DNA from: Welwitschia mirabilis
Taxonomy: Eukaryota
Assembly: GCA_051453625.1 (NCBI GenBank)
Contig: JBOZIK010000001.1
Coordinates: 39,100,452 to 39,137,547, forward strand
Length of the DNA stretch: 37,096 bases
Direction of reading: 5' to 3'
Every line of letters starts with the position of its first letter. The stretch's first letter is position 1. This document shows positions 7,010 through 37,096 of the stretch, piece after piece. The notes under the pieces are model-generated. The model was not told the origin of the DNA. It saw nothing but the letters and a program-made list of their open reading frames with translations, and did no database searches. The position numbers and the translations under genes are program-made.

Positions 7010-9505
7010 AATATTACTTAATAGTTTAGCAATTTTACTAAAATTACAATGAATCTTATATAATGCCCTGCATAACCCAAAAATAATCCTAGTTCTCTTA
7101 GTTTAGTTGGTGGAGTAATTTCTCTAATGATATTAATCTTTTACTCATCAGTTTCAATTCCTCTTACTGATATCCTATAGCCTAAAACAATCCCTTCAGC
7201 CATTATGAGATGAATTTTAGACTAGTTTAATTTTAAATTATTTTCTTCACAACATGTAAGTACCACTTCTAGTTTTTTCAAAGCTTTCCAAAATCATTTC
7301 CAAAGGTTAAGAAGTCATCCATGAAAACCTCAACTGGCTTTTCTATCATGTCTTGAAAAATACTATTTACTAACTATTGAAAAGTGGCTAGTGCATTACA
7401 TAACCCAAAATGTAAAACTTTAAAAGCATGTGTATTCCATTTGTAAGTAAAAGTAGTTTTTTCTTGGTCTTCAAGAGCTATGGGAATTTAGTTATACCTA
7501 CTGTATCCATCCAAGAAATTGTAGTATTTATAACAAAAAATTCTTTTTAAAACCTCATCCGTAAAGAAAAAAGGAAAAATGATCCTTATAAGTAGTAGCA
7601 CTTAGTAGCCTAAAATCTATGAATACTCTCCATTTATTATTCTTTTTAGAAACTACTGTCACAAGACTTACCCANNNNNNNNNNNNNNNNNNNNNNNNNN
7701 NNNNNNNNNNNNNNNNNNNNNNNNNNNNNNNNNNNNNNNNNNNNNNNNNNNNNNNNNNNNNNNNNNNNNNNNNNTTTTACTCATCAGTTTCAATTCCTCT
7801 TACTGATATCCTATAGCCTAAAACAATCCCTTTAACCATCATGAGATGACTTTTAGACTAGTTTAATTTTAAATTATTTTCTTCACAACATGTAAGTACT
7901 ACTTCTAGTTTTTTCAAAGCTTTCCAAAATCATTTCCAAAGGTTAATAAGTCATCCATGAAAACCTCAACTGGCTTTCCTATCATGTCTTGAAAAATACT
8001 ATTTACTAACTATTGAAAAGTGGCTAGTGCATTACATAACCCAAAATATAAAACTTTAAAAGCATATGTATTCCATTTATAAGTAAAAGTTGTTTTTGCT
8101 TGGTCTTCAAGAGCTATGGGAATTTAGTTATACCTACTGTATCCATCCAAGAAAATGTAGTACTTATAACCAAAAATTCTTTTTAAAACCTCATCCACAA
8201 AGAATAAAGGAAAAACGATCCTTATAAGTAGCAACAGTTAGTAGCCTAAAATCTACGAAAACTCTCCATTTATTATTCTTTTTAGAAAATACTGTCACAA
8301 GACTTACCCATTCTAAATAAAAAATAGGGTAGATGAATCCCAGTTTTAATAGCCTTAAAATTTTCTTCTTGATTACATCTTGCATATGAGAATTACATGT
8401 CCTTTTTAGTTGTCTCACACTTTACTGTGATATCTAAATAAATTTTATATTGACATATTGTATGGTTTACCACAATAATATCTTCATGAGTTCAAGTAAA
8501 TGTATTAGTCCATTTAGCTAATATCATTTTTAATTTTCTATATTAAGAATGAGTCAAATTTCCATTAATAATTAAAGATCTATTTTTTTGAATTTCAATG
8601 AATTCCAAACCTTGTTCAAGGTGCGTTTTCTCAAGTTCCTCCTCTTTTTCTATTAGTTCAATAGTCAAGGATTATCTTATTCTTTTAACCTCTCATTATT
8701 ATAATAAGTGTTGAGCTTATTTTACAAGGATAACATTNNNNNNNNNNNNNNNNNNNNNNNNNNNNNNNNNNNNNNNNNNNNNNNNNNNNNNNNNNNNNNN
8801 NNNNNNNNNNNNNNNNNNNNNNNNNNNNNNNNNNNNNNNNNNNNNNNNNNNNNNNNNNNNNNNNNNNNNNNNNNNNNNNNNNNNNNNNNNNNNNNNNNNN
8901 NNNNNNNNNNNNNNNNNNNNNNNNNNNNNNNNNNNNNNNNNNNNNNNNNNNNNNNNNNNNNNNNNNNNNNNNNNNNNNNNNNNNNNAATGAGTCAAATTT
9001 TCATTAATAATTAAAGATCTATTTTTTTGAATTTCAATGAATTCCAAACCTTCTTCAAGATGAGGTTTCTCAAGTTCCTCCTCTTTTTCTATTAGTTCTA
9101 TACTCAAGGATTATCCTCTTCTTTTAACCTCTCATTATTCTAATAATTGTTGAGCTTCTTTTGCAAGAATAACATTAGTACTATTTCCTTTATTAATAAA
9201 GGAGTGTTTAATTTCTACCTCATCAAATATTTTTATTTATGGCATTAGGTCTCTCAAACTAATATTCATTACTCCCTTATAAGAATAAATAGTTTCATTA
9301 GCTATTGCCATTCAAGTCTCCCTAGGATGATAGGGTGAGTATTNNNNNNNNNNNNNNNNNNNNNNNNNNNNNNNNNNNNNNNNNNNNNNNNNNNNNNNNN
9401 NNNGTATTCTTTATTATTTCCTTTGGCTTTACTATAGAGCCATTTTTCATGTAAACTCATCCATTATTATCTAATAGACATAATGGAACCTAGGATCAAA
9501 TTTTA
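7010..9505 (-). mobile_element. Athila-like element B: decayed protease-RT (RNase H and integrase deleted before the PPT)
   Basis: Protease: YMKNGSIVKPKEII and HPIILGR..AIANETI. RT: RQLKRTCNSHMQDVIKKKILRLLKLGFIYPI..EWVSLVTVFSKK..WRVFVDFR, catalytic EVFMDDF/L (two copies around a gap), EGIVLGYRISVRGI, LFLGYAGHYIRFI. Confidence 0.85.
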
Positions 9506-17789: not shown

Positions 17790-18938
17790 CTATGCTAATT
17801 TGATTTAGGGTTTACAGAGGGGCTTGTTCCCCAAAATTGAGAAGATCCAATTCTTCAAGGAGTGAAAAACCTAGTCTTAGTCTTAGATATTGATGAAGGT
17901 ACTTGTTTGGAGATAGAGAAGAAACTCCAATATGGTTTAATTGGTAAGTCCATTTCATCAGGTCCAAGACCCAGGCTTAATCTTATCATAGAATGGATAG
18001 CAACAAAATGGATAAAGGTTAGTAAAGTTAAATTTATTATTATGCCAGAAGGATTAGTGCTTTTTTAGTTTGATAATGAATGAGATCAAGAAGAGATTAT
18101 TACAAGAGGACCCTAGTTTTTTGGACTGAGGGAATTCACCTAGCTAAATGGATGCTAGGGGCACAATCAAAACTAAACCTTTTTAGGAAACTACCAATAT
18201 GAATCCCCATCCAAAAGTTTCCTCTAGAGTTTTGGAATGAAGACCTACTAAGGAAAATCACATCACAGTTTGGTGAACTTGTTAAGCTTGATAGAATAAC
18301 TATTAAATAGACGAGGCTAGTCCTTGCTAGATCATGCATTTGGATGAGCTTAAAAGATAAAAAGGAGACATAATCTATTAAGTTCAGATCCAACTGGGGC
18401 ATATATGACCTTGAAGTTATCTATGAGAACCTCTCGGTTCTATGTAAAATTTGTGAAAAGTCAAGATGCATCTTAGGAAGATGCATTTCTACAAAAAAGA
18501 GATGTTCCCATTGTGGGAGAATGGGTCATGTAAGGGAAATGCAGAAAAAAGTTAATAGACATTGAAGAAAAACAAAAAAAAGCCTATTTTTTCGTTGAAA
18601 AAACTAAACACAATCAAAGCAACTATTGACATAAATAAAAGAAGAAGAAAATGGTGAAGAGCACTATGGTCTTCCCCAAGGAAAGTAAGGAAAATAAGGA
18701 ACAGGAGAAGTAGTACAACTTCTTCCAATCTCTTATAGAAGAAGAGGACATTCAGTAACTTTAAAATCCATTAACCATAGAAGAGTCGAATGATGTGAAA
18801 GTTTAGATGATAGGAAGACCTAGCAATAAAACCCTCTAAGGAAGGGAAACTAAAGAGAATGTGGCTAATAGCTCTCAAGATACTATTGAAGATACTCTGA
18901 AAAGGTTAAGCTTTCAGAAAGGGGCAAAAATAGACTTA
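17790..18938 (+). pseudogene. LINE ORF1 (DUF4283-like + zinc knuckles), decayed
   Basis: YGLIGK...WIATKW...GLVLF*FDNE*DQEEIITRGP*FF...HLAKW...LPI*IPIQKFPLEFWNEDLLRKITSQFGELVKLD...LARSCI...VIYENLSVLCKICEKSRCILGRC...CSHCGRMGH is a typical plant L1 ORF1. The start is approximate. Confidence 0.85.
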
Positions 18939-20523
18939 ATGGATTGTCTCTCTTAGAACTGCAGGGGATTAGGATTCTCCTATAAGAAAAAACCCTAAGA
19001 CATCTTATCAGTTAATTTAATATTAAATTAGTTTCTCTATAGAAAATAAAAATGAAGGATGGTATGACACTAGAGAATCTAGGATAGCAGTGAAACACTT
19101 TTACCTATACAGCCTAAGGAAACTTAAGAGGCCTCATGATTCTCATGAATAAGGAGGCAAATTTAGTTAACTGCAATAAGAACCACATAACTATCTTTTT
19201 GAAGGAATAATGCTAGACTATAATAAACATTTATAATCCTCAAAATAATCAAGATAAAGCTTTCACTTTAAGGGACTTATAGTATANNNNNNNNNNNNNN
19301 NNNNNNNNNNNNNNNNNNNNNNNNNNNNNNNNNNNNNNNNNNNNNNNNNNNNNNNNNNNNNNNNNNNNNNNNNNNNNNNNNNNNNNNNNNNNNNNNNNNN
19401 NNNNNNNNNNNNNNNNNNNNNNNNNNNNNNNNNNNNNNNNNNNNNNNNNNNNNNNNNNNNNNNNNNNNNNNNNNNNNNNNNNNNNNNNNNNNNNNNNNNN
19501 NNNNNNNNNNNNNNNNNNNNNNNNNNNNNNNNNNNNNNNNNNNNNNNNNNNNNNNNNNNNNNNNNNNNNNNNNNNNNNNNNNNNNNNNNNNNNNNNNNNN
19601 NNNNNNNNNNNNNNNNNNNNNNNNNNNNNNNNNNNNNNNNNNNNNNNNNNNNNNNNNNNNNNNNNNNNNNNNNNNNNNNNNNNNNNNNNNNNNNNNNNNN
19701 NNNNNNNNNNNNNNNNNNNNNNNNNNNNNNNNNNNNNNNNNNNNNNNNNNNNNNNNNNNNNNNNNNNNNNNNNNNNNNNNNNNNNNNNNNNNNNNNNNNN
19801 NNNNNNNNNNNNNNNNNNNNNNNNNNNNNNNNNNNNNNNNNNNNNNNNNNNNNNNNNNNNNNNNNNNNACTTTAACCAATGCCTATACTATTGGGAGAAA
19901 TCAGGGGGAGATAACTAGAATTCCAAAGGGGCTATAATTCTTAAAGATTTCATGACACAAAATGCCCTTGTAGACTTTCCTCTCACTAGGTATAAATACC
20001 CTTGGTCCAATAGAAGGATAGAAAACAATCATAATGTCTAGAATTAATAAAATTCTTATGGAAAAGGACTTAGCAGTCCTCCCAATTGAAGCTTGTAGTC
20101 TAAATAGAATAGCTTTGGATCACCATTCAATCAAATATAGAATCGGGATGATAATGCCTCCAAGGATTCAATTTCGAATGGAATGTTTCTAGATTACCAG
20201 GACAAAAACTAGAACTCTAATAGAAAAAATTTCGATCTAGTATAACGATACTCAGCCATTAATCTTCCTCTACATAGGCCTCAACACCTTAAAATCTCAT
20301 ATAAATGACTAAGGGAGGAAAGACAAAGAAAGATTTAAATCCAAAAAGAACCTTGAAGAAGAGACCCAGAGAATCCAAACTAAGAAAGAAGAGGGGAAAG
20401 AATAAGATAACCTTCATAATAGGGAATATCAGTGCCTTATGAAATTCAAAGAGATAAATGTTGATGAGGAAAAATAATAGAGAAAATGATTAGGAATAAA
20501 GTGGGTTAAGGAGGGGGACAAAC
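18939..20523 (+). pseudogene. LINE ORF2 N-terminal part: APE endonuclease and linker
   Basis: MDCLS*NCRGLG (SWNCRGLG), INIYNP (NVYxP), LVDFPLTRYKYPWSNRR (FTWSN), SRINK (RLDR), DHHSI (SDH), QFRMECF* (FRFExxW). It ends WVKEGDK at the LTR junction. Confidence 0.88.
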
Positions 20524-21571
20524 TGATGCACTGCCAAATTGTATGCATTTGATGGAGTGTTATGAGCTATTTTATAGGACTTTTATATAAGTTTAGATGC
20601 AAATCTAAGGATTTTGAAGTGTTATTGAATAATCACTAAAGTACGTAATTCTTGCATATTTATAGGCATTTTATAAACTTTCTAATTCTCATTAATTTAG
20701 AAGAATATTACTAATGTTAGAGTTAATTTCTCTTAAGTTGAAAATCTAAGGAAGACTATCCTTCCACTGTCGTCCCCATGACAGATAGGACGATAGCCTC
20801 AGACATGCCAAAATAGGATGCTGATTGGATTAGAGCTGAGACCAATGGAAGCTTGTTTTCTAAGGGTGTCATTCCCCATGTTGTCCCCATGACATGAAGG
20901 ACAACAAATCATAACATATGCACCATCACCCCTTGGTCATTCCCATAACTTATAACTATTAACCAACCTTTGACCATTTCATCCATTTCTTTTCTATAAT
21001 TCAGTGTATTTTGTAGTGTATTTTGTGAGTTAATTTTGCTTTGTAATCCTATAAATAAAACTCCCCCTTCAATTCTCCTCTCCATCTTCATTTGCACCAA
21101 ACATTCTCATGATTGGAGATCAAAGGGCTAGAGATTCATCTCACAAGTTATAGAAAAATGTTCGCTTGGTAAAGGGCTATGCATCCTCCATTAAGTCTCG
21201 GTTGTTTTGTAACCCAGACGTTGGTTCTTTCTTAATACAAAACTTTGTTTTTATTGTGCATCTTAATTTTGTCTTATTTTCCTTATGATTTATGTTGTCT
21301 TGATTTGTTAACAGTTTCATTAGTGATATAGGTCTTAATGGTAGCCTTTGTTAGGGCTAAAAGAAAATAGTCTTAGATTAATTGCATTTAGATTTAGCCG
21401 CATTTGTATTTGCATTACATCTTTAATTCCTGCATTGTTCTTCAATTTCGTTTACTATATTCTTTTGGAAAATTAATCCTTATTCTTCTTTCATAAGTCT
21501 TTAATGAGATATAACATTTAGGTCACTCTTATTCATACTAGAGTGTATATGCAAAAATATGCACTGTAACA
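20524..21571 (+). repeat. 5' LTR (1048 bp)
   Basis: TGATGCACTG...CACTGTAACA (TG...CA), TATAAATA at ~21049, homologous to 29133 onward. Confidence 0.88.
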
Positions 21572-21574
21572 TCT

Positions 21575-21592
21575 TGGCGTCATTGCCAGGGA
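21575..21592 (+). other. Primer-binding site, tRNA-Asp type
   Basis: TGGCGTCATTGCCAGGGA vs Athila-type TGGCGCCGTTGCCGGGGA: three transitions. It lies 3 nt after the LTR end. Confidence 0.85.
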
Positions 21593-22420
21593 AGGCTATT
21601 CAAAAGCATAAAGATTGTCATTATTTGAATGAGTAAATTGGATTTTTATTTAGTTATTTATCTATAGCGATGTTGTATTTTTAATTAGGAATTATAGGTT
21701 TTTAGTTTTTGGTTTTTTGGTTTTTTCGATATTAGTTATCATCCTATTTGTTGTCCCCATGACATTAGATATGACAGCACCAATTTTCTCAGTTTTAACT
21801 TTTGTCTGTGAGCTTTTCTTTTGTTTTTAGTTTTACTAGTTAAATAAGTATTATCTTGTTCATCGTTCCCATGACAAGATGGATGACTGTTTTGTTTTTA
21901 GCTTTTGGTTTTTAGATTATAGTTTCCTATTAGTATAATAATATTTCATTTTCATTGTCTCCTGCATCGTCGACATGACCAGAAGGATGATAGTCTATGT
22001 GTATTTTTGAATTTCAATTTTCTTCTTTACTAAATTTTTTATTTTATTTTCTATTATTTTAGAAAAATAGTAGATTGTTATGGCATGGTTGATACGAGAA
22101 GAAAATATTAGAGAAAAAAGGGATACTAATAGAAGAAAATATCGGAGAAGGACCAATTAACTTGGGAATAGAATCGAGAATGCAATCTCTAGGTGCATAT
22201 AATATCTCTTCTGAGTTTATTTTTACTAAATCCAATTTCCTAAAAAGAAATTTTTTAAAAGATAATGATAGTTATTAGACATCTTTTAAGCATTAAGAAT
22301 TCAGACAATTTTATTAAAACATTAAAGAAAGTAAAACTCGACTATCACTATGCACTTATCTTCATCTTGAATTAGATTATCTTTTTCCCATTCTTTTCAA
22401 TTATGAATAGTAATACAAGG

Positions 22421-25107: not shown

Positions 25108-28100
25108 ACCTTGTGATCTTGACAATAATAACCTCTTTTCCTTTACCCCTTTTGAACATTCAAGTAATTCTTCAAATCACATCCATGTCCTTAAGACACA
25201 TCATCTTGAGGACTCGACTTCAAAAATCTCACAATCCTTTCCTTTTAAAACTTTATATGCTACAAAACATAACATCTTTTCCTCTTTTGTAAAGCCAACT
25301 CTACCTTGTTCTTTTAATGATTATCCTTTTAAAAAATAAGACCTGTAATATCTAGGAACTCTAAATTGGGGTAAACCATATGTTTTTGATCCAAATCCAT
25401 GCTTAAAATTAANNNNNNNNNNNNNNNNNNNNNNNNNNNNNNNNNNNNNNNNNNNNNNNNNNNNNNNNNNNNNNNNNNNNNNNNNNNNNNNNNNNNNNNN
25501 NNNNNNNNNNNNNNNNNNNNNNNNNNNNNNNNNNNNNNNNNCAAATAATTTATATCATGAGTTTGATATGAGGTTGTTTTTTCATGAGTTATATGAATTT
25601 TTTATCTCTTGTATTACTACTAGATCTTGTGAAGCCAAAATGTTATGTGGCCATTCTAATCGAAAAAAGTATTATTTTTTAAATTAAAATCCATGTCTTG
25701 AATTGATAATAGAAAACTTCTTAATCTTATTATACATTTTAAAGATCCTTCAAAATCGTCTTAGATACTTTCTTTGAGTCCCTCCTCGCATGCCTTTTAT
25801 AATGATACTGAGGATTCATAATGTTTTTATAAGAGATTATTTGTAAATAATACTAATTACTTCTTTATCTCTTATTCGAATTTTGAAATTTGTGCTATTA
25901 AAGTTTTATATTTCTATTCCCTCTTCCTCCAATTGATTTTACTCAAAAATATTTATATACCTTTTATGCTTTATCAATTGGTAAATACTTGGTTTGGACC
26001 TTATTTCTTCAAAAGAATGTAATATCCAGAGACCATAGCCTTAGAAACAAATCCTTTCTTTTCTTTCTTTAAATAAAAGTATTGAATAAAGATTTTAGGA
26101 TTTGAATAGAGTTTACTTTTAGTTTGCATTAGTGTTTCNNNNNNNNNNNNNNNNNNNNNNNNNNNNNNNNNNNNNNNNNNNNNNNNNNNNNNNNNNNNNN
26201 NNNNNNNNNNNNNNNNNNNNNNNNNNNNNNNNNNNNNNAAAGATTTTAGGATTTGAATAGAGTTTACTTTTAGTTTGCATTAGTGTTTCCTTTTTTGCTC
26301 TTAAGTTTTTATGATTTTGACTTTAATTTTAATTTTAAGTAATAAATCAACCTCTAGATGGTTAAGTCTTTACCTTATCTTTGATAAAGTACATTCTAAT
26401 GGCTATGTTAAGATTTTTGACTTAATCACTAAAGAACTTCAAAAAGTTAATGAGCACAGGTTAAAAATATATGAGCAACATTCTGATTAAACATTATNNN
26501 NNNNNNNNNNNNNNNNNNNNNNNNNNNNNNNNNNNNNNNNNNNNNNNNNNNNNNNNNNNNNNNNNNNNNNNNNNNNNNNNNNNNNNNNNNNNNNNNNTTG
26601 ACTTAATCACTAAAGAAATTCAAAAAGTTAATGAGCACAGGTTAAAAATATATGAGCAACATTCTGATTAAACATTATAGAAGCACTAGCCTTAGAGGTT
26701 TCCCTTGATGAGGAGGACTTCTTCCCTACCATTGTCTAAATTTTCTCTTAGCTTTTAACTTTGGAGACCACTATAATATCACTTGATCATCTTTCAAACA
26801 TGACTTATGTATTGATTTCCATGATTAGTCTTTGACTTGGGCATTTTATAGTGGTAAGATTAGATTCATCCAATCTTAAGACATTCACATGTCTATGGAC
26901 TTTAGTTGAAGGAAGATGCTTTATTTTTTATTTTTNNNNNNNNNNNNNNNNNNNNNNNNNNNNNNNNNNNNNNNNNNNNNNNNNNNNNNNNNNNNNNNNN
27001 NNNNNNNNNNNNNNNNNNNNNNNNNNNNNNNNNNNNNNNNNNNNNNNNNNNNNNNNNNNNNNNNNNNNNNNNNNNNNNNNNNNNNNNNNNNNNNNNNNNN
27101 NNNNNNNNNNNNNNNNNNNNNNNNNNNNNNNNNNNNNNNNNNNNNNNNNNNNNNNNNNNNNNNNNNNNNNNNNNNNNNNNNNNAACAATGTAATATAGTA
27201 GTTGTGGGAACTCCACTAGGTGATCAGTTGACCATGCTTTACGGGTCCTTACTTTTCTAACTGTGGTTGTGCTACCCTCATCAGGGATATTTAGATAATA
27301 AAATAATAAAAACATAGGATCAGTGGTATTTCTAGATTTATTAGGGTATTACTTGATTCCTTGACACTTCATTTTTCCACATGATCATTTCATTTCTTAG
27401 GATTTAGGTGTTTGTTTTGNNNNNNNNNNNNNNNNNNNNNNNNNNNNNNNNNNNNNNNNNNNNNNNNNNNNNNNNNNNNNNNNNNNNNNNNNNNNNNNNN
27501 NNNNNNNNNNNNNNNNNNNGATAGTTAGATAATAAAATGATAAAAACATAAGATTAGTGGTATTTCTAGATTTATCAGGGTATTACTTGATTCCTTGGCA
27601 CTTTATTTTTCCACAATGATCATTTCATTTTTCAGGATTCAGGTGTTTGTTTTGAGATGTAAGAAAGAGAATTCATTCTTAAGCAACTCTTCGATCTTAT
27701 CACTTATTGTTTAAAGAATTTCATTTTTAGCATCATCATAACCATTGCCTTATCGAACAGAATTTTTTTTATACATCAAGTCATGCGTTTTTAAATCAAG
27801 TGATATTATGATTTCTTTCATGAACTCTATTAGGTTAAAATTTTTGATAGGAGGCTATCTTCTTTATGTTTCCTTATGTCCATTTTTTTTGTTTTCTTTC
27901 ATTATTTAGTTAGTTATTTTAAAGTCATTTCCATAGTTTCTTATCATTTTTGGATCTTAATGGATTCCTTCATAGTTTTTAATAAAGAATTCATTTCTTG
28001 CTTACATAAGTTCCCTTAATAATTTTATAATGTTTATTTTCAGTCTTTTGATGTTCTAAACATTGCTCTTAATCATTTTTGTGATGGTGCATTTTTTAAA

Positions 28101-29101
28101 AATTCATTGATCTGCTTAGTACATTTTCATTATCCACTTTTTTTGTCCTTGTTAGAATATTTTATACATCTCTAGTTTCCAAATCTGAACTTTTATACTC
28201 AACTTTGTACTTAAAGCTGTCCAAATTCAAAAAAACATCCATCATCTATCTTCTCACTTATGTTTGCTTTCTTTGTTTTATTATCCAATACCAGACATAT
28301 TATTTTTCTCAAGAGAAGAGGCAGGACTCATTTTCATGACTTATTTTCATAATTTTTCAAAGTTATTGTAGAGCTTTCATGAGACATAATTTTTAAAATT
28401 CTCTCTCCATACACATAAAGTGTTACATGTTGTTTTGCCATGCAATGTGTTTGAGATTATTTTTATAATTTACAGATTGATTNNNNNNNNNNNNNNNNNN
28501 NNNNNNNNNNNNNNNNNNNNNNNNNNNNNNNNNNNNNNNNNNNNNNNNNNNNNNNNNNNNNNNNNNNNNNNNNNNNNNNNNNAATTTTATAATGTTTATT
28601 TTCATTCTTTTGATGTTCTAAACATTTCTCTTAATCATTTTTCTGATGGTGCATTTTTTAAACATTCATTGATCTGCTTAGCACATTTTCATTATCCACT
28701 TTTTTTGCGCTTGTTAGAATATTTTATACATCTCTATTTTCCAAATTTGACACTTTTATACTCAACTTTGTACTTAATTCAAAAGCTGTCCAAATTCAAA
28801 AAAACATCCATCATCTGTCTTCTCACTTATGTTTGCTTTCTTTGTTTTATTATCTAATACCAGACATATTGTTTTTCTCAGGAGGAGAGGCAGGACTCAT
28901 TTTCATGACTTATTTTCATAATTTTTTAAAGTTATTTTAGAGATTTCATGAGACATAATTTTTAAAATTCTCTCTCCATACACATGAAGTGTTACATGTT
29001 GTTTTGCCATGTAATGTGTTTGAGATTATTTTTATAATTTCCAGATTAATTTTTTATAAGACAATTTAACTCGCATTTGTAGTTGTTCACTTGGTTTTTA
29101 T

Positions 29102-29132
29102 CAGGGACTGACAAAAGCTAACTGAAGGGCTA
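29102..29132 (+). other. PPT region before the 3' LTR
   Basis: CAGGGACTGACAAAAGCTAACTGAAGGGCTA directly precedes TGATGTAC and resembles the Athila 'GGGAC...AAAAGCTAAG..GGG' pattern. Confidence 0.6.
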
Positions 29133-31098
29133 TGATGTACTACCAAATTTTATATATTTAATGGGGTGTTATGATCTATTTTGTAAGACTTTTATATAGG
29201 TTTAGATGCAAATATGATGATTTTGGAAAGTTAATAGATGATCACCAAAGTACACAATTCTTGGCATATTTATAAACATTTCAAGAATTTTCTAATGCTA
29301 ATTGCTTTGGAAGAAGATCACTAATGTTAGAGCTAATTTCTCTTGAGTTGGAAAGCTAAGGAAGACTGTCGTCCCCACTATCTTTCCCACAACAGATAGG
29401 ACGACAACCCCACACATGCTAAAATAAGATGTTGACTGAATTAGAGAGGGACCAATAGAAGCTTATTTTCTAAGGGTGTCATCCTTCATGTTATCCCCAT
29501 GACATGAAGGATGATAAATCATAACATATGTACTGTCATTCCCTGGTCATCCTCATGACAACAGGGATGATACTTATAACTACTAGTCGATCTTTGACCA
29601 TTTCATCCTTTTATTTTCTATAATTAAGCATATTTTGCAGTGCCTTTAATGCAGTAATTTTACTTTGTAATCCAATAAATAAGACCTTTCTTCGATTCTT
29701 CTCTCCATCTTCATTTTCACTAGACATTCTCGTAATAGAAGATCAAAGGGCTAGGACTCCGTCTCGCGAGTTGCAGAAAGACATTCTGTTGATGAAGGGT
29801 TGTGCATCCTCCATTAAGTCTTAGCTGTTTTATAAACTAGACATTGGTTTTTTCTTAATATGAAACTATATTTTTATTGTTCATTTTAATTTTGTCATAT
29901 TTTCATTATGGTNNNNNNNNNNNNNNNNNNNNNNNNNNNNNNNNNNNNNNNNNNNNNNNNNNNNNNNNNNNNNNNNNNNNNNNNNNNNNNNNNNNNNNNN
30001 NNNNNNNNNNNNNNNNNNNNNNNNNNNNNNNNNNNNNNNNNNNNNNNNNNNNNNNNNNNNNNNNNNNNNNNNNNNNNNNNNNNNNNNNNNNNNNNNNNNN
30101 NNNNNNNNNNNNNNNNNNNNNNNNNNNNNNNNNNNNNNNNNNNNNNNNNNNNNNNNNNNNNNNNNNNNNNNNNNNNNNNNNNNNNNNNNNNNNNNNNNNN
30201 NNNNNNNNNNNNNNNNNNNNNNNNNNNNNNNNNNNNNNNNNNNNNNNNNNNNNNNNNNNNNNNNNNNNNNNNNNNNNNNNNNNNNNNNNNNNNNNNNNNN
30301 NNNNNNNNNNNNNNNNNNNNNNNNNNNNNNNNNNNNNNNNNNNNNNNNNNNNNNNNNNNNNNNNNNNNNNNNNNNNNNNNNNNNNNNNNNNNNNNNNNNN
30401 NNNNNNNNNNNNNNNNNNNNNNNNNNNNNNNNNNNNNNNNNNNNNNNNNNNNNNNNNNNNNNNNNNNNNNNNNNNNNNNNNNNNNNNNNNNNNNNNNNNN
30501 NNNNNNNNNNNNNNNNNNNNNNNNNNNNNNNNNNNNNNNNNNNNNNNNNNNNNNNNNNNNNNNNNNNNNNNNNNNNNNNNNNNNNNNNNNNNNNNNNNNN
30601 NNNNNNNNNNNNNNNNNNNNNNNNNNNNNNNNNNNNNNNNNNNNNNNNNNNNNNNNNNNNNNNNNNNNNNNNNNNNNNNNNNNNNNNNNNNNNNNNNNNN
30701 NNNNNNNNNNNNNNNNNNNNNNNNNNNNNNNNNNNNNNNNNNNNNNNNNNNNNNNNNNNNNNNNNNNNNNNNNNNNNNNNNNNNNNNNNNNNNNNNNNNN
30801 NNNNNNNNNNNNNNNNNNNNNNNNNNNNNNNNNNNNGGACAGTTTCATTAGTGATAGAGGTCTTAAGAGTAACCTTTGTTAAGGCTGAAAGAAAGTAGTT
30901 TTAGGTTCATTGCATTTAGATTTAGTTGCATTTGCATTTGTACTACATCTTTAGTTTTTGCATTGTTCTTCAATTTTGGTTACTATATTCTTTTTTAAAA
31001 TCAATCCTTATTCTTCTCTTTAAGTCTCCAATGAGATACAACATTTAGGTCACTCCCATTCATAATAGAGTGTGTATGCAAAAATACGTATTACAATA
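29133..31098 (+). repeat. 3' LTR region (29133-29912, gap, 30837-31098), possibly two LTR copies
   Basis: Collinear with the 5' LTR at roughly 80-85% identity by eye. The ~920-N gap replaces only ~20 bp of the 5' LTR alignment. Confidence 0.8.
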
Positions 31099-31123
31099 TC
31101 TTGATGTTATTATTAGGAAAGGC

Positions 31124-31488
31124 AAAGCCTGTTTTTGCTTCCCCTCGATCTCGAGGGGCCCTCCAGGACGGATCGGATTTATGAAAACAATCAGTCAGTA
31201 TGCTTGCCCATGTAGCCAGGACAAGGATTGGTGATAAGGTAAGCCCCGCATATAATCCCTACATCATATAATATAGATATATACGCCGGGGTACTCCCCT
31301 TTGGTTAAGGTGAATGTATCGCAGAACTGCCTGCTGTTCAAGTGNNNNNNNNNNNNNNNNNNNNNNNNNNNNNNNNNNNNNNNNNNNNNNNNNNNNNNNN
31401 NNNNNNNNNNNNNNNNNNNNNNNNNNNNNNNNNNNNNNNNNNNNGCCAAGCCAGGCAGGTACAATGGAAGGGTTATATAGAAAGAAGG
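31124..31488. other. CpG-rich inserted island (filler or organelle-like DNA)
   Basis: Absent from the homologous position (~21597-21604) of the first copy. It retains many CG dinucleotides and has a CCCCTCGA-TC-TCGAGGGG hairpin. Confidence 0.6.
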
Positions 31489-31654
31489 AGCATGAGGATT
31501 ATCATCGTTCAGGCAGATAAATTGGATTTTTATTTAGTTATTTATCTATAGCGACGTTGTATTTTTAATTAGGAATTGTAGGTTTTTAGTTTTTTGGTTT
31601 TTCAATTTCTTCAATATCAGTTTTCAGTTTTTTCGATATCAGTTTTATTTTTAA

Positions 31655-32014
31655 TTCTGAAAGGGCTAAATTTTAGATAAAATCAAAGTATTTTGCTAGT
31701 TGAAGGATCATAACAAAATCTTCATAAGAGAACAAATGTGCACGAGGGGCTTTCAAGTTGAAACTACTTATCCAATTTGTCAGTCTTGTACTAAAGATGC
31801 TAATCACCTGTTTCATTAATGAAAATGGAGTGACAAATTAATAACAATTATGAAGAGTAACTACAAGCTCTGTAACACATTTAACACATGCATTAATGAT
31901 GGGATTTACTTGACTTATTGGTAGATATGGCGTACAAGAAATGATTTGATTTTCAATAGCACCCCCTCCCATTTCCAATAAATATCGCTAAGAGAATCAA
32001 ATGATATCACTTAG
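31655..32014 (+). pseudogene. LINE ORF2 C-terminus (zf-RVT)
   Basis: F*KG*ILDKIKVFC*LKDHNKIFIREQMCTRGFQVETTYPICQSCTKDANHLF and YW*IWRTRNDLIFN match 'KIKxFxWL..H.K......RG......CxxC....E...HLF' and 'WxIWxxRNxxIF'. Confidence 0.85.
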
Positions 32015-32028
32015 AAATCAGAATAGCT

Positions 32029-33204
32029 ATGGGAGCAACTCCTCTTATTGAATCTTTTGATCCTAGTTTGTTTAAAATATGTCCTCAGTTGTGGGAGAAG
32101 GTGTAGGCTGTGGGTTTGGGAATCATCTTGCACAAACTGAAGGAACAACTAGGGGTTGATATTATCCCTTTCTATAGATGATGGAGAGGGCAGTGAACAA
32201 ACCTTAAGAGAATCTCCACCAAAATCACTAAAGAATTTCTCTAAACTTTTCGAAATTCTAGTAGCTAGTGAAAGAATTCCTTTTGAAAGCAGAGAATAAC
32301 AAGAGGTGCTCCACTTTTTTCTTGGTGGTGTTCCTAAGCTACCTAGTGGGCACATCAACCAAAAGGCACTTTTGCCCTTTTAAAGATTGAGTGTCGAATT
32401 CATATACCAATACTTCATTCAATCTAGAAGCTTTTAGTTGTATACTTCATATTTCTTAAAGCCTTAGATCTAGAACACCAGGTTAACCTACCATTCTTCT
32501 TCATTTAGGCATTATGTCATAAAGACACTACAAGATACTCAGGATTAATTATGGCACTTTAGAGGGTAGGTAGTGAGATTAGGATGTAAGAGGCCCCTTA
32601 TCCCTTCTCCTTCAATAATGTCCTTAAGAGACCCCTCTTAGAAAAAAACCACGGATGAAGCCTCTAACTCTAAGGAGAATGTTAAAGAGGGAAGCTCCAA
32701 CTCTCAGAAAAGGTTGACTCCACTCCTAGAACCTCAGGAAGAGAAGCCAAATTTGCCCTCAACATAGGAAGAGATAGCTCAAGAGAACTTTCCAACTGAA
32801 TCCCAGAAGAACCCCTTGACGAGACTCAAAATGACACCTACCCCTAGAAGAGTTTCAATTCCACCCAAGAGTTGACTATGGATTCTACATTAGAAGAGAT
32901 GTCGCATAACTCTTAGGAAGACATAGATATGGACACCACAAAAAGATAGGTTATTCTTGCCAAAATTCATGGGCTAAACAGATGTCCATCTGTGGCCCCA
33001 AGAATCTCTAGTAGAGCCTTATCACAAGCAATCAAGTTAAGCTATAGGAAGAAAGCGTTGACACTGCACCATAACAAGAATCAAGTAGGAGTTAAAGAAT
33101 TCAAGGAGGTTAATCACATCTTTGAGGTGCTATCTAATGAAATGGAGCACTTCCTACTAGAGCATAAGCACAACAATCTCTTTCCCTTTTGTAGGGTATA
33201 CTAA
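32029..33204 (+). pseudogene. LINE-borne ORF3 (~390 codons, stops and frameshifts): globular N-terminal domain, acidic/Pro linker, C-terminal J-domain
   Basis: ATG at 32029: MGATPLIESFDPSLFKICPQLWEKV*AVGLG..., then ...SGHINQKALLPF*RLSVEFIYQYFI..., FLKALDLEHQVNLPFFFI*ALCHKDTTRYSGLIMAL, an E/P/S-rich linker and the J-domain. Several frameshifts are needed. Confidence 0.6.
32983..33141 (+). pseudogene. DnaJ/Hsp40 J-domain (HPD motif altered to HHN)
   Basis: CPSVAPRISSRALSQAIKLSYRKKALTLHHNKNQVGVKEFKEVNHIFEVLSNE aligns with little or no gapping to xPYxVLGVxxxASxxEIKKAYRKLALxxHPDKNxxxxExFKEINxAYEVLSD. Confidence 0.85.
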
Positions 33205-33229
33205 TCCCTCATTTTTTTAGGTATTTTAC

Positions 33230-33600
33230 ATAGTTTAGTTCTAATTCTTATTAGTTCTTTTCTCAAGGGCCGCTTTCGCTCCCAATTTTAACCTGTTTAC
33301 AGTTTGTTCCTACATTTTCTATAAAATGTTCTCCTTCAAGTTAATCAGTTTACTTTGTCATGTCAAATTAGGATGATCTCGCCCCTCTTTGTAAATTCTC
33401 TATCCCCTTCAGGTTACTTGGCTAGTTTAGCTCTAGCTTCTATTAGTTTTTCCTCTCAAGGTGCTTGCGCCCCCAATTTTATTCTATTTTCAGTCTGTCT
33501 TTGAGTATCCTATAGAATCCACAGGTCGTTCGCTCACTCCGTCAAGCTAGGGTCTTTTTGCCTCCCCATGTAAATTTTCTAGTTTAATATATCTCTATTT
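33230..33600 (+). repeat. Diverged ~190-bp tandem duplication in the LINE 3'UTR
   Basis: tagtttagttctaattcttattagttcttttctcaagggccgctttcgctcccaatttta vs tagtttagctctagcttctattagtttttcctctcaaggtgcttgcgcccccaatttta. Both units run on to tgtaaatt(c/t)tcta. Confidence 0.65.
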
Positions 33601-33607
33601 CTATTTC

Positions 33608-33630
33608 AAAAAAAAAAGTAATTATAAGTT
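33608..33630 (+). other. LINE poly(A) tail (A10, 33608-33617) and right TSD (33616-33630)
   Basis: ...ctatttc AAAAAAAAAA gtaattataagtt. Base composition changes after this point. Confidence 0.75.
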
Positions 33631-34649
33631 AAAAAATGTAAGATATAATAGAAAAAACCAATTTATAGGATGAATGTTCTATAATATCTTTTATTCTTCA
33701 AAAATAAATCCCTAAGCCTAAAAAAAGTAAAATAAAAAACTAATAAAGGTAATAGTAAAATACTATATCACTCATTGTGCACTCAAGCTAATACATTAAT
33801 AAATAAATTAACAAAACCTAAACCTTATTTTTCCTTAGGCACATTCATAATATTTCAAGTAACTTTATGAAATCATTTTTTCCCTTCTACAAAAGACCAC
33901 ATAAAACTTCTAAGAACTTACTTTAGCCTTAAGTAAGCATATTTTAAGGAATCCCAATAAAAAAATAATAAACATGAGTAAAGTAATAATAAATTTATAT
34001 CAAAAATTGGCCTATAATTAAAAAAACATTTTGTCCTCATTTATTCACTTTTCTTTGAATTCTTTGTAATGTCTAATCTTATAAACTTTGAGGATGATTT
34101 TAAAATAAATAGAAACACTTAAATCTTTGATAATTCCCTCTCCTTCTAGAATGTGTCATGCATAATATAGAAGATATTGATAATATGTCTCCACTTGTTA
34201 TATAAACTAAATACTTTTTCTAGTTTATATCACCTCTTGATAATTAATAATACTACTAAAAATGAATAAAAAGATAACCAATAAATTATTGATCATTTTC
34301 CACTATAAAGAAAGAATCATTACCAAAAATGTAAATTTAGTAACTTGTGAGAAGCATTATCCAAATAAATTTCCCTCACTAATTTGATGTTAAAAAGCAA
34401 GACAAATAAAATCAACTACAATTATGAAAAGATATGGATGAAGGAATGACCTTTCTTAACTATAAAGAGAATAAGAAATGTCAAACTTATTCCCTAAGAA
34501 GTAGTAATAAAATAATTTCCATGTAGAAATAAGCATTTCACAATATGAAGAAATTATGATTCAAAATCAAATTTCTTCATGAAGAAAAGAATAAAATCCT
34601 ATTTAACTTCATTATATGGTTTAGCATAATCAATTTTGATAAAGATGAT

Positions 34650-34778
34650 GCCGGGCGCCCAGGACCCAAGCAAAAGCAAAAGGGAAGGCCCTTTACCCTT
34701 TTGTTTAGGAATAGGGAGATTCTGATCGGGGTAGCAGATGCTAAACAAGCTATTATGGAATAGTGCAGGTCCTTATCC
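34650..34778. other. GC-rich island replacing part of the minus-strand LINE RT
   Basis: gccgggcgcccaggaccc... with a CAAAAGGG/CCCTTTTG stem. RT motifs stop and resume at its edges. Confidence 0.55.
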
Positions 34779-35380
34779 TTAGTGTATAGGATATCAAATA
34801 GAATTCTTTTAAGTTAATGAGGTAGGTAGTTATCTCAAATATTGTAAGTCACATTTAATAATGTAACGAACCATATAAGTTACATTAAATAAGGATCATC
34901 TAATTTAGGTAACAAATAATGTTACCTTTGTTAATATGATGACTAAATGATCCATAGTAAATGCCCTCCTTACCCTCCTTAATGACATTAAGACAATCAT
35001 AACTTAACATATCCTAGTTTTCTTTATGAAAGTTCACTAGAAAACCATTAAAACTAGGTTCTTTTTCATTGGTTGTATCTAAATAAGATACTTTTAATTC
35101 TACAAAAGTAATATTAGAATCTAACACTTACCACATTTTAGTACTAATTACTAGAGAAAGGAATAAAGAAAGATGACCAAACTTATTATGGTTGATAAAA
35201 TTCTCTTTTTGAAAATAATAATAATAATAATATCATTGTGATTAGAAATGATCTAGCCATTAATCTTTAAAGAACTAATTAGAGGCTCACTATTTAAAGG
35301 ATTTATAAATTTAAAAAATTATTTAGAATTATCATGTTGAGTTATGAATCATTAAAGCCCAATTTTAGAAGACCACTCTC

Positions 35381-36245
35381 TACTAGATAGACCTTTCACT
35401 TTTATTAAGTCATCCTAGCTTTAGCAAGAATAACCTAAAGCTTAGAATTAAAAGAATTATTAGGAAGTTCATTATTTAAATCTCAATAGATTAAAATGGA
35501 AGTCTAGATTATGAATCTACATTTTTTTTTCATATAATGAGCATAACTTTAAACATTGCATAAGATGTGATTCCACTAAAAGGTCTAAGTTTTTCATTTC
35601 ATAATTCATTAAGAATTTTTTATCNNNNNNNNNNNNNNNNNNNNNNNNNNNNNNNNNNNNNNNNNNNNNNNNNNNNNNNNNNNNNNNNNNNNNNNNNNNN
35701 NNNNNNNNNNNNNNNNNNNNNNNNCACTAAAAGGTCTAAGTTTTTCATTTCATAATTCATTGAGAATTTTTTATCTACTAGGTCATTTATCCCATCTTCT
35801 GTTAAGTCAAAATGAAGAAAATTAGCATTATGAAGGTGAACATGCAAATGTACTAGACCTTTTCACTTTTATTAAGTCATCCTAGCTTTAGCAAGAATAA
35901 CAACTTTAAACACTTAAGATATGATTCCACTAATCAAAACATTCTATTAAAAAAACCATATATGGCTAAAAGGTCTAAGTCTTTCATTTCATAATTCATT
36001 AAGAATTTTTTATCTACTAGGTCATTTATCCCATATTATGTTAAGTCAAATTGAAGAAAATTAGCATTATGAAGGTGAACATGCAAATTTACTAGACCTT
36101 TTCACTTTTATTAAGTCATCCTAGCTTTAACAAGAATAACCTAAAGCTTAGAATTAAAAGGATTATTAGGAATTTAATTATTTAAATCTCAAAGTTCTTA
36201 CGTAATAGATTGAAATGGAAGTCCAAATTATCAATCTACATTTGT
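35381..36245. repeat. Complex tandem duplication (~240-bp core, 3 partial copies) inside the minus-strand LINE
   Basis: tagacc(t)tttcacttttattaagtcatcctagctttagcaagaataac occurs at ~35388, ~35854 and ~36093. ctaaaaggtctaagt...catttcataattcatt occurs at ~35576, ~35727 and ~35966. Confidence 0.8.
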
Positions 36246-37096
36246 TTTTCATGTGTCTTTGACTTTCTTTGGTACCAAAAATTCTAAGCACTTCAACATC
36301 ATTATCAAAAATAATATGCTTAATATACATATGTAGTGAAAGATGACATAGAAAAATAATAATTTGAATGGAAATAAATCATAAAGCAAAATTAATATAA
36401 AAATTCTTAAATGAGGTTCATTTTTATTAGCTTTAATATGAAGTAAAGATATTAATATGATGATTTTGGATTCAAAAGATTTTTAAATGGATTTCTATCC
36501 TTTTGATGTTCAAAAAAAGAAAATAGATAACATGGTAACCGTATAACGTATGACGATGGGGGATCGTAACNNNNNNNNNNNNNNNNNNNNNNNNNNNNNN
36601 NNNNNNNNNNNNNNNNNNNNNNNNNNNNNNNNNNNNNNNNNNNNNNNNNNNNNNNNNNNNNNNNNNNNNNNNNNNNNNNNNNNNNNNNNNNNNNNNNNNN
36701 NNNNNNNNNNNTAGTCCAACAATGCAATATCCAATAAACAAATACGAAAGTAAGCTTGCAATCTCAAGAATGATGCAACAAAGTAGAATCCCTTAGCAGT
36801 TGCCTCATGTTGTGTCATTTCATATTCTTGATTCTTATCACCTTATGCATGTTCTACCACTTTAAATAGGGTCCTTACTTCCTCAAGTCTATTTTATTTT
36901 CCAAATATAGATTTTACAAGTTAGTGTGATTTCCTTTATTGATTAGAGAAGAGATTTTATACTAAAGACATATAAGGTAACCATTTCCATAAGTAGTAGT
37001 GAACTGTTGCATTTGGCTCAAATACTTTTCCTTCATTTTTTTTTTCATTTCTTCATTATTTTTGCCCATTCCTTTGAGAGACAAATATCCCTCTAA

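Follow-up and report, generated by a model that had tools for sequence, protein, structure and literature searches.

A Decayed Hsp40-Type J-Domain in the Tail of a 5'-Truncated L1-Type LINE Copy From Welwitschia mirabilis

Introduction

Virus-encoded J-domains, such as that of the polyomavirus large T antigen, are examples of a selfish element using host Hsp70 through a J-domain of its own. In J-domains, the invariant His-Pro-Asp (HPD) motif between helices II and III is required for Hsp70 stimulation.

The fixation of a new protein domain is a rare event in retrotransposons, and cases such as the RNase H of plant L1 elements or the helicase of insect R1 elements each show what limits their spread. 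As described in the available portion of PMC4686597, plant L1 LINEs with a C-terminal archaeal-type RNase H after ORF2 are known (Smyshlyaev et al., 2013, as cited in PMC4686597), and insect R1 LINEs have a tobamovirus-like SF1 helicase at the ORF2 C-terminus. For the R1 helicase, the same portion speculates that it helps RNP handling or counters host defence. Retroelements also carry transduced pieces of host genes: a gene-capture review (PMC13317346), in whose available text the term "DnaJ" does not occur, gives 3' transduction by human L1 and the maize element Bs1 as instances. At the level of titles and abstracts, no paper was found that describes a LINE with a J-domain.

The locus reported here lies in a stretch of 37,096 nucleotides of the Welwitschia mirabilis assembly GCA_051453625.1 (contig JBOZIK010000001.1, positions 39,100,452–39,137,547), the whole of which is referred to as the window. 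Unlike the J-domains of polyomavirus large T antigens, which are intact, expressed and tested, the J-domain in this locus is a decayed relic known from sequence alone. The arrangement is the same as in the plant L1 elements with RNase H, in that a foreign domain is placed 3' of zf-RVT, where ORF2 ends, and in the orientation of ORF2. However, the RNase H is in frame, conserved and reported active in the available account, whereas the J piece is out of frame with ORF2 and has lost its key motif. The locus is also like insect R1 in that a LINE acquired an accessory domain behind ORF2, but the clade, the host and the domain are different, and the available account of R1 has intact ORFs where none was found here. 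Finally, the layout is like that of 3' transduction, in which a piece of a host gene sits between the body of the element and a newly gained poly(A) and is copied onward with the element. The plant examples in the available text of PMC13317346 are LTR elements, whereas the present case concerns a LINE, a family-wide piece and no donor gene. If intact members of the family exist, LINE replication or anti-silencing would be tied directly to Hsp70. If there are none, the locus would be a commonplace instance of a gene fragment amplified in the tail of a LINE, and would serve as a reminder that finding a recognisable domain within a repeat does not make it an ORF.

Results and Discussion

Structure of the Element

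The proposed LINE copy occupies positions 31653–33617 on the forward strand, as do all of its parts described below. The draft sequence of the window is AT-rich and interrupted by 24 runs of N; none of these falls within 31445–35624, so the element is contiguous. It opens with a 5'-truncated L1-type ORF2 end (31653–31960), which includes a zf-RVT remnant (31667–31825) and W-x-I-W-x-x-R-N words (31919–31942) and has six stops in 102 codons of its own phase. The preliminary description had recognized an ORF2 end by these two features, and the identification holds in part. When a 39-aa open piece (31700–31816) was searched by features against the protein atlas, zf-RVT sets from Streptophyta made up 27 of its 30 matches (score 0.92, 180 shared features), and the words are present at their place. 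On the other side, the Pfam zf-RVT match in a six-frame scan of 31450–33620 is below the cut-off (16.7 bits versus 27.5, E = 0.012), and the words are broken by a stop at the first x. The same scan of 31450–33620 found neither RVT_1, the copy being cut at 31653 before zf-RVT, nor RNase H, and 26001–31449 was covered by the ORF listing alone. A word-based search of the zf-RVT read-through against longer proteins found no match.

At the 5' end, 37 contigs of the DNA sequencing run X1 continue upstream of 31653 into sequence unlike the window, forming a pile of loose ends that marks this position as the truncation point of the present copy. Nowhere else in the window is there a match to a 16-nt word taken from the sequence into which those other copies continue upstream, indicating that the missing 5' part was not displaced within the window. 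The sequence adjoining the 5' end (31518–31652, no strand assigned) lies outside the LINE and is the end of an unrelated, very abundant repeat, as seen from self-comparison and read depth.

Downstream of the ORF2 end is a decayed stretch (31961–32949) that has no open frame, differs in length among copies, and has no match to any Pfam family at E ≤ 1 in six frames. It is followed by an 84-codon open stretch with its stop codon at 33202–33204 (32950–33204), which is the sole long open frame of the element and contains the J-domain relic (33004–33141). The 3' untranslated part (33216–33581) consists of two units of about 190 nt (33216–33402 and 33408–33581) that are about 70% alike; the repeat search reports them as families D1–D3 (spacing 179–192, identity 70–71%), and BLAST aligns them at 76.9% over 78 nt. 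No internal repeat was found in 32400–33010, the only tandem repeat is a 22-nt unit at 31600–31646, and Rfam and tRNA scans of the window gave no matches. The element ends in ten A's at 33608–33617, which direct reading confirmed as the poly(A) tail claimed earlier. The 15-bp target site duplication claimed along with it was not found: the repeat search has no direct repeat at the element ends, and the best candidate in a scan of 31560–31700 against 33590–33700 was 13 nt with two mismatches, located away from the ends.

The J-Domain Relic

The homology to J-domains is real. As the preliminary description had proposed, the 84-aa ORF matches the Pfam DnaJ family (PF00226) above the cut-off (30.2 bits versus 27.8, E = 5e-7); residues 19–64, corresponding to nucleotides 33004–33141, align with profile positions 8–56 of 63. 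The same region placed inside a 723-residue read-through scores only 25.4 bits, which is under the cut-off. A phmmer search against PDB yielded 30 chains at E ≤ 1, of which 28 have names of the DnaJ, Hsp40, Sis1 or Ydj1 type and two have uninformative names. The best match is 2och_A (dnj-12; E = 2.1e-6), and a type II Hsp40 J-domain, DNAJA1 and Sis1 are also among the matches. In the protein atlas, DnaJ sets account for 26 of the 30 matches of the J stretch. Only one match at E ≤ 0.001 emerged when 1.84 billion cluster representatives were searched exhaustively with a 117-residue read-through: a DnaJ protein of 200 aa and generic type, with 36% identity and 41.6 bits (E = 1.5e-5). A score of 41.6 bits in a library of this size rules out a chance likeness to DnaJ. 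Thus, the piece is homologous to J-domains of the classical A/B type and has no close relative among these representatives.

Helix II, the loop and helix III of the piece align over 46–49 residues with those of class A/B Hsp40 proteins (dnj-12, 2och; human DNAJA1, 2lo1; yeast Sis1, 8eod), and the K-x-Y-R-K-x-A-L and F-K-E-x-x-x-x-x-E-V-L-S words of this class are kept. In contrast to these proteins, the piece has no match to helix I or to the final part of helix IV, and its HPD place (33067–33075) reads H-H-N in the PDB alignment. An intact HPD, which the preliminary description had proposed to look for among the copies, is lost in this copy and was not seen in any other; indel rows at 33071/33073 in six X1 contigs and four to five contigs of the second DNA run (X5) would imply H-L-D at this place. 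Because the HPD place reads H-H-N, the piece is, judged by its sequence, a J-domain relic and not a working member. It was as such a relic that the predicted position was borne out, on the LINE strand, 3' of the L1-type ORF2 end and 5' of the poly(A).

A single-sequence AlphaFold2 model has low confidence (mean pLDDT 62.1) and two helices (residues 21–42 and 48–71); the top two Foldseek matches of this model are J-domains, which are not significant (E = 1.1 and 5.4). Other parts of Hsp40 proteins, namely the G/F region and client-binding domains, were not found by Pfam after the J piece. A word-based search of the J ORF against longer proteins found no match. Among metagenome contigs, a protein-pattern scan matched 597 stretches, of which none was confirmed, and a search for a 24-nt word of the J region gave no exact match.

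Open Reading Frames and Expression

The preliminary description had read a decayed third ORF of about 390 codons from an ATG at 32029 to the end of the open stretch at 33204. The ATG (32029–32031) was confirmed by direct reading, and the frame that starts from it is interrupted by 21 stops over its 391 codons. Within 32029–32949 (307 codons), there are 21 stops in the ATG phase and 14 and 25 in the other two. The stop rate expected from composition is 6.5% per codon, which places the ATG frame at random density, such that a decayed ORF in 32029–32949 is indistinguishable from noise. In addition, some other copies are without the segment that holds this ATG (joints 31958>32159 and 31959>32166, each linking two positions of the present copy). 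There is no ORF3 in the present copy. Among RNA reads aligned to the region, about a quarter of each run being covered, none that is at least 95% alike falls on this copy (0 of 8 aligned reads in run X16 and 0 of 28 in run X13), and the expression looked for in RNA-seq was not observed in these reads. On the opposite strand inside the element, a 76-codon open stretch (32152–32379, −) has no Pfam match and probably arose by chance.

The phase of ORF2 (that of zf-RVT) is stop-poor in two segments that precede the shift into the J phase, with one stop in 68 codons in 32159–32364 and two in 93 codons in 32584–32864, versus five to eight in the other phases; each of these differences corresponds to about P = 0.07 by a Poisson estimate, before correction for the choice among three phases. 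A 240-residue read-through of phase 2 (32153–32872) found no match among proteins of near length in a word-based search.

Origin of the J-Domain Fragment

With roughly even confidence, we regard 31653–33617 as a dead, 5'-truncated L1-type copy from a family that carries a captured fragment of a host Hsp40 J-domain and copies it passively. We infer that, most likely, part of a host Hsp40 gene would have been acquired by an ancestral element, either by 3' transduction, in which transcription runs on into the flanking DNA, or by a template switch in reverse transcription. The fragment, which lies about 470 nt upstream of the poly(A), would then have been copied passively with the element tail. 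No donor gene was found, the generic DnaJ protein mentioned above being the only match at E ≤ 0.001 in the exhaustive search. This counts against passive carriage of a captured fragment, as do two further findings. First, among the 16 of 11,101 pieces and 15 of 345 joints listed, no single long record joins the LINE tail to the J part, and only three X1 contigs are present at 32365–32450. Second, the J stretch is the only one open over 84 codons, versus the six stops in 102 codons of the zf-RVT part. This open stretch and the stop-poor intervening segments are no less compatible with an extension that was once translated than with passive carriage, with the reservation that the openness of the J stretch is subject to ascertainment bias, the J piece having been noticed for being well kept.

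It is accordingly possible, if rather doubtful, that active ancestors translated the J-domain to engage host Hsp70, either as an extension at the ORF2 C-terminus, set off by a long linker that changed fast, or as an independent ORF further downstream, and that the present copy is a decayed relic of this state. This is a modified version of the idea put forward in the preliminary description. The J piece is on the ORF2 strand throughout the family, it is the only long open frame, the ORF2 phase is stop-poor between the two domains, and what was captured is a single domain without any other Hsp40 part. Furthermore, the C-terminus of LINE ORF2 accepts foreign domains, as exemplified by the plant L1 RNase H and the insect R1 helicase in the available portion of PMC4686597. 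However, the present copy has no uninterrupted frame, the HPD is absent from it and from the few other readable copies, and no related protein was found among the 1.84 billion representatives or in the word-based searches. The linker between RT and J varies among copies by indels of 107, 182–240 and 281 nt, and both the marginal stop counts and the biased choice of a well-kept piece weaken the argument from open frames. More tentatively still, a plant L1 lineage might have acquired and expressed a classical Hsp40 J-domain as an ORF2 C-terminal module or a third ORF; such a domain could have provided an Hsp70 handle for RNP folding or remodelling, or for interference with chaperone-dependent silencing, and the copies seen today would be fossils of it.

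Colinearity of the LINE Tail and the J-Bearing Part

Contigs of the two DNA runs (X1 and X5) and reads of the two RNA runs were aligned to 31445–34200 at a likeness of at least 80%. The coverage dips at 32078–32146, 32714–32855 and 33524–33536 coincide with joints in other copies, which, among the 15 listed of 345, are 31958>32159, 31959>32166, 32062>32245, 32067>32308, 32583>32865, 32758>32866, and 33504 or 33518>33568 (contigs of 300–800 nt). These joints indicate that other copies are colinear with the present one and are without the segments concerned, and they account for the indels in the RT-to-J region given above. As a candidate remnant of the element's own poly(A) at the junction, which capture by 3' transduction could leave, there is a run of seven A's (32643–32649), but it lies inside a segment that is absent from some copies (joint 32583>32865). 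For 32365–32450, there is no bridge among the joints listed.

The LINE tail and the J-bearing part are probably one element, because they have the same orientation, the single poly(A) is at the far end, and no listed pile of loose ends lies inside; colinearity of the two is likely. The contrary reading is that two unrelated repeats stand head to tail. In that case, the fragment of L1 tail would stop close to 32365, and the J relic would belong to a different repeat at about 32451–33617, either a retroposon ending in poly(A) or one of some other kind. This reading appears unlikely. It would explain why coverage falls to three X1 contigs at 32379–32384, with a summed depth of 154 in the bin 32365–32456 versus 872 and 945 alongside, and why no bridge over 32308–32451 is found among 15 of 345 joints and 16 of 11,101 pieces listed, and the neighbourhood is indeed a patchwork of repeats. 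However, neither a poly(A) nor an end of the L1 part is present near 32365, three contigs cross 32379, and the orientation of both parts and the sole distal poly(A) are as expected of one unit. Moreover, the other coverage dips are bridged by joints, which points to indel variation rather than ends, and of the 15 loose-end piles listed (of 2,466), none is inside 31654–33617.

Copy Number and Family Nature

The numbers of contigs that align on 31445–34200 are 5,287 (X1) and 5,365 (X5). In the likeness classes of 99% and above, 95–99%, 90–95% and below 90%, X1 has 185, 324, 1549 and 3229 contigs and X5 has 156, 328, 1570 and 3311, respectively. Among the 16 pieces listed of 11,101, two from X5 that are 80–83% alike extend over the J region and its flanks (32856–33102 with 48 other letters; 33083–33417 with 66), and a further such piece is from X1 (33120–33518 with 66 other letters and 5 gaps). 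Others cover the LINE tail (31653–32043, 31747–32029 and 31780–32066). At variant sites drawn from 40 of the 847 that differ, the commoner other letter is found in 41–74 X1 contigs in the RT tail (31721–32044), 41 at 32903, 30–31 in the J region (33011 and 33168), and 25–38 in the 3' part (33247–33421). These counts are of like order along the element, which is one member of an old multi-copy repeat family.

The preliminary description had named a single chimeric retrocopy as an outcome that would overturn it, and the element survives this test, the J region and both of its flanks being present in many diverged copies. That the chimeric structure arose only once, by retrocopying or 3' transduction at this site alone with a J piece from a single host gene, is therefore highly improbable: the order of LINE piece, gene piece and poly(A) is that of a template-switching product, as is well established, but single sites show the J region in about 30 distinct X1 contigs and in 27–33 of X5, the pieces 80–83% alike run into both J flanks, and no close host gene was found among the 1.84 billion representatives.

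A peak of bin depth over the J region (925–1057 versus 125–267 alongside) was considered as a sign of conservation and rejected, as the site depths are only 232–345 and the region's contig counts resemble those on either side; the bin depth is probably due to a few collapsed contigs. Substitutions relative to X1 contigs are mostly transitions (C>T 177, G>A 141, T>C 131 and A>G 107, versus 10–44 for each transversion), an excess that fits old, methylated repeats as expected. The runs X1 (organism A) and X5 (organism B) have nearly equal counts and likeness classes and share even the same joints. It follows from this agreement either that the family predates the split of the two organisms or that the two are very close.

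Sequence Context in the Window

Pfam searches found no family in six frames of 33621–37096, and ten further ORFs in the window had no match at E < 0.03 and none near the cut-off. A candidate reverse transcriptase of an LTR element at 8194–8421 (−) was rejected, with no Pfam match to bear it out. The 5' part of another L1-type element is located at 17970–20540 (+), where Pfam DUF4283 matches in two phases (17970–18125, E = 9.2e-5; 18122–18337, E = 5.1e-7) with a frameshift in between. By eye, this element continues with a zinc-knuckle-like CxxC..H..C word and then endonuclease-like words to about 20540, with no RVT_1 after them.

A repeat of about 1.2 kb occurs twice (20524–21741 and 29133–31626), its copies being 79–91% alike in three blocks. 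Both begin within L1-like sequence, and the second ends at the 5' end of the LINE copy. The segment 31518–31626 is 90.8% alike to 21634–21741, and the last 110 nt or so of the repeat have a summed depth of 6415 (X1) and 9313 (X5) in the bin 31537–31628, with loose ends piled at 31518–31567. Lastly, the sequences flanking the N runs at 7675, 8738, 9865, 11255, 22944, 23660, 26498, 27420 and 28483 are 92–99% alike over 81–536 nt, a pattern suggesting that overlapping or allelic contigs were falsely duplicated where the scaffold has gaps.
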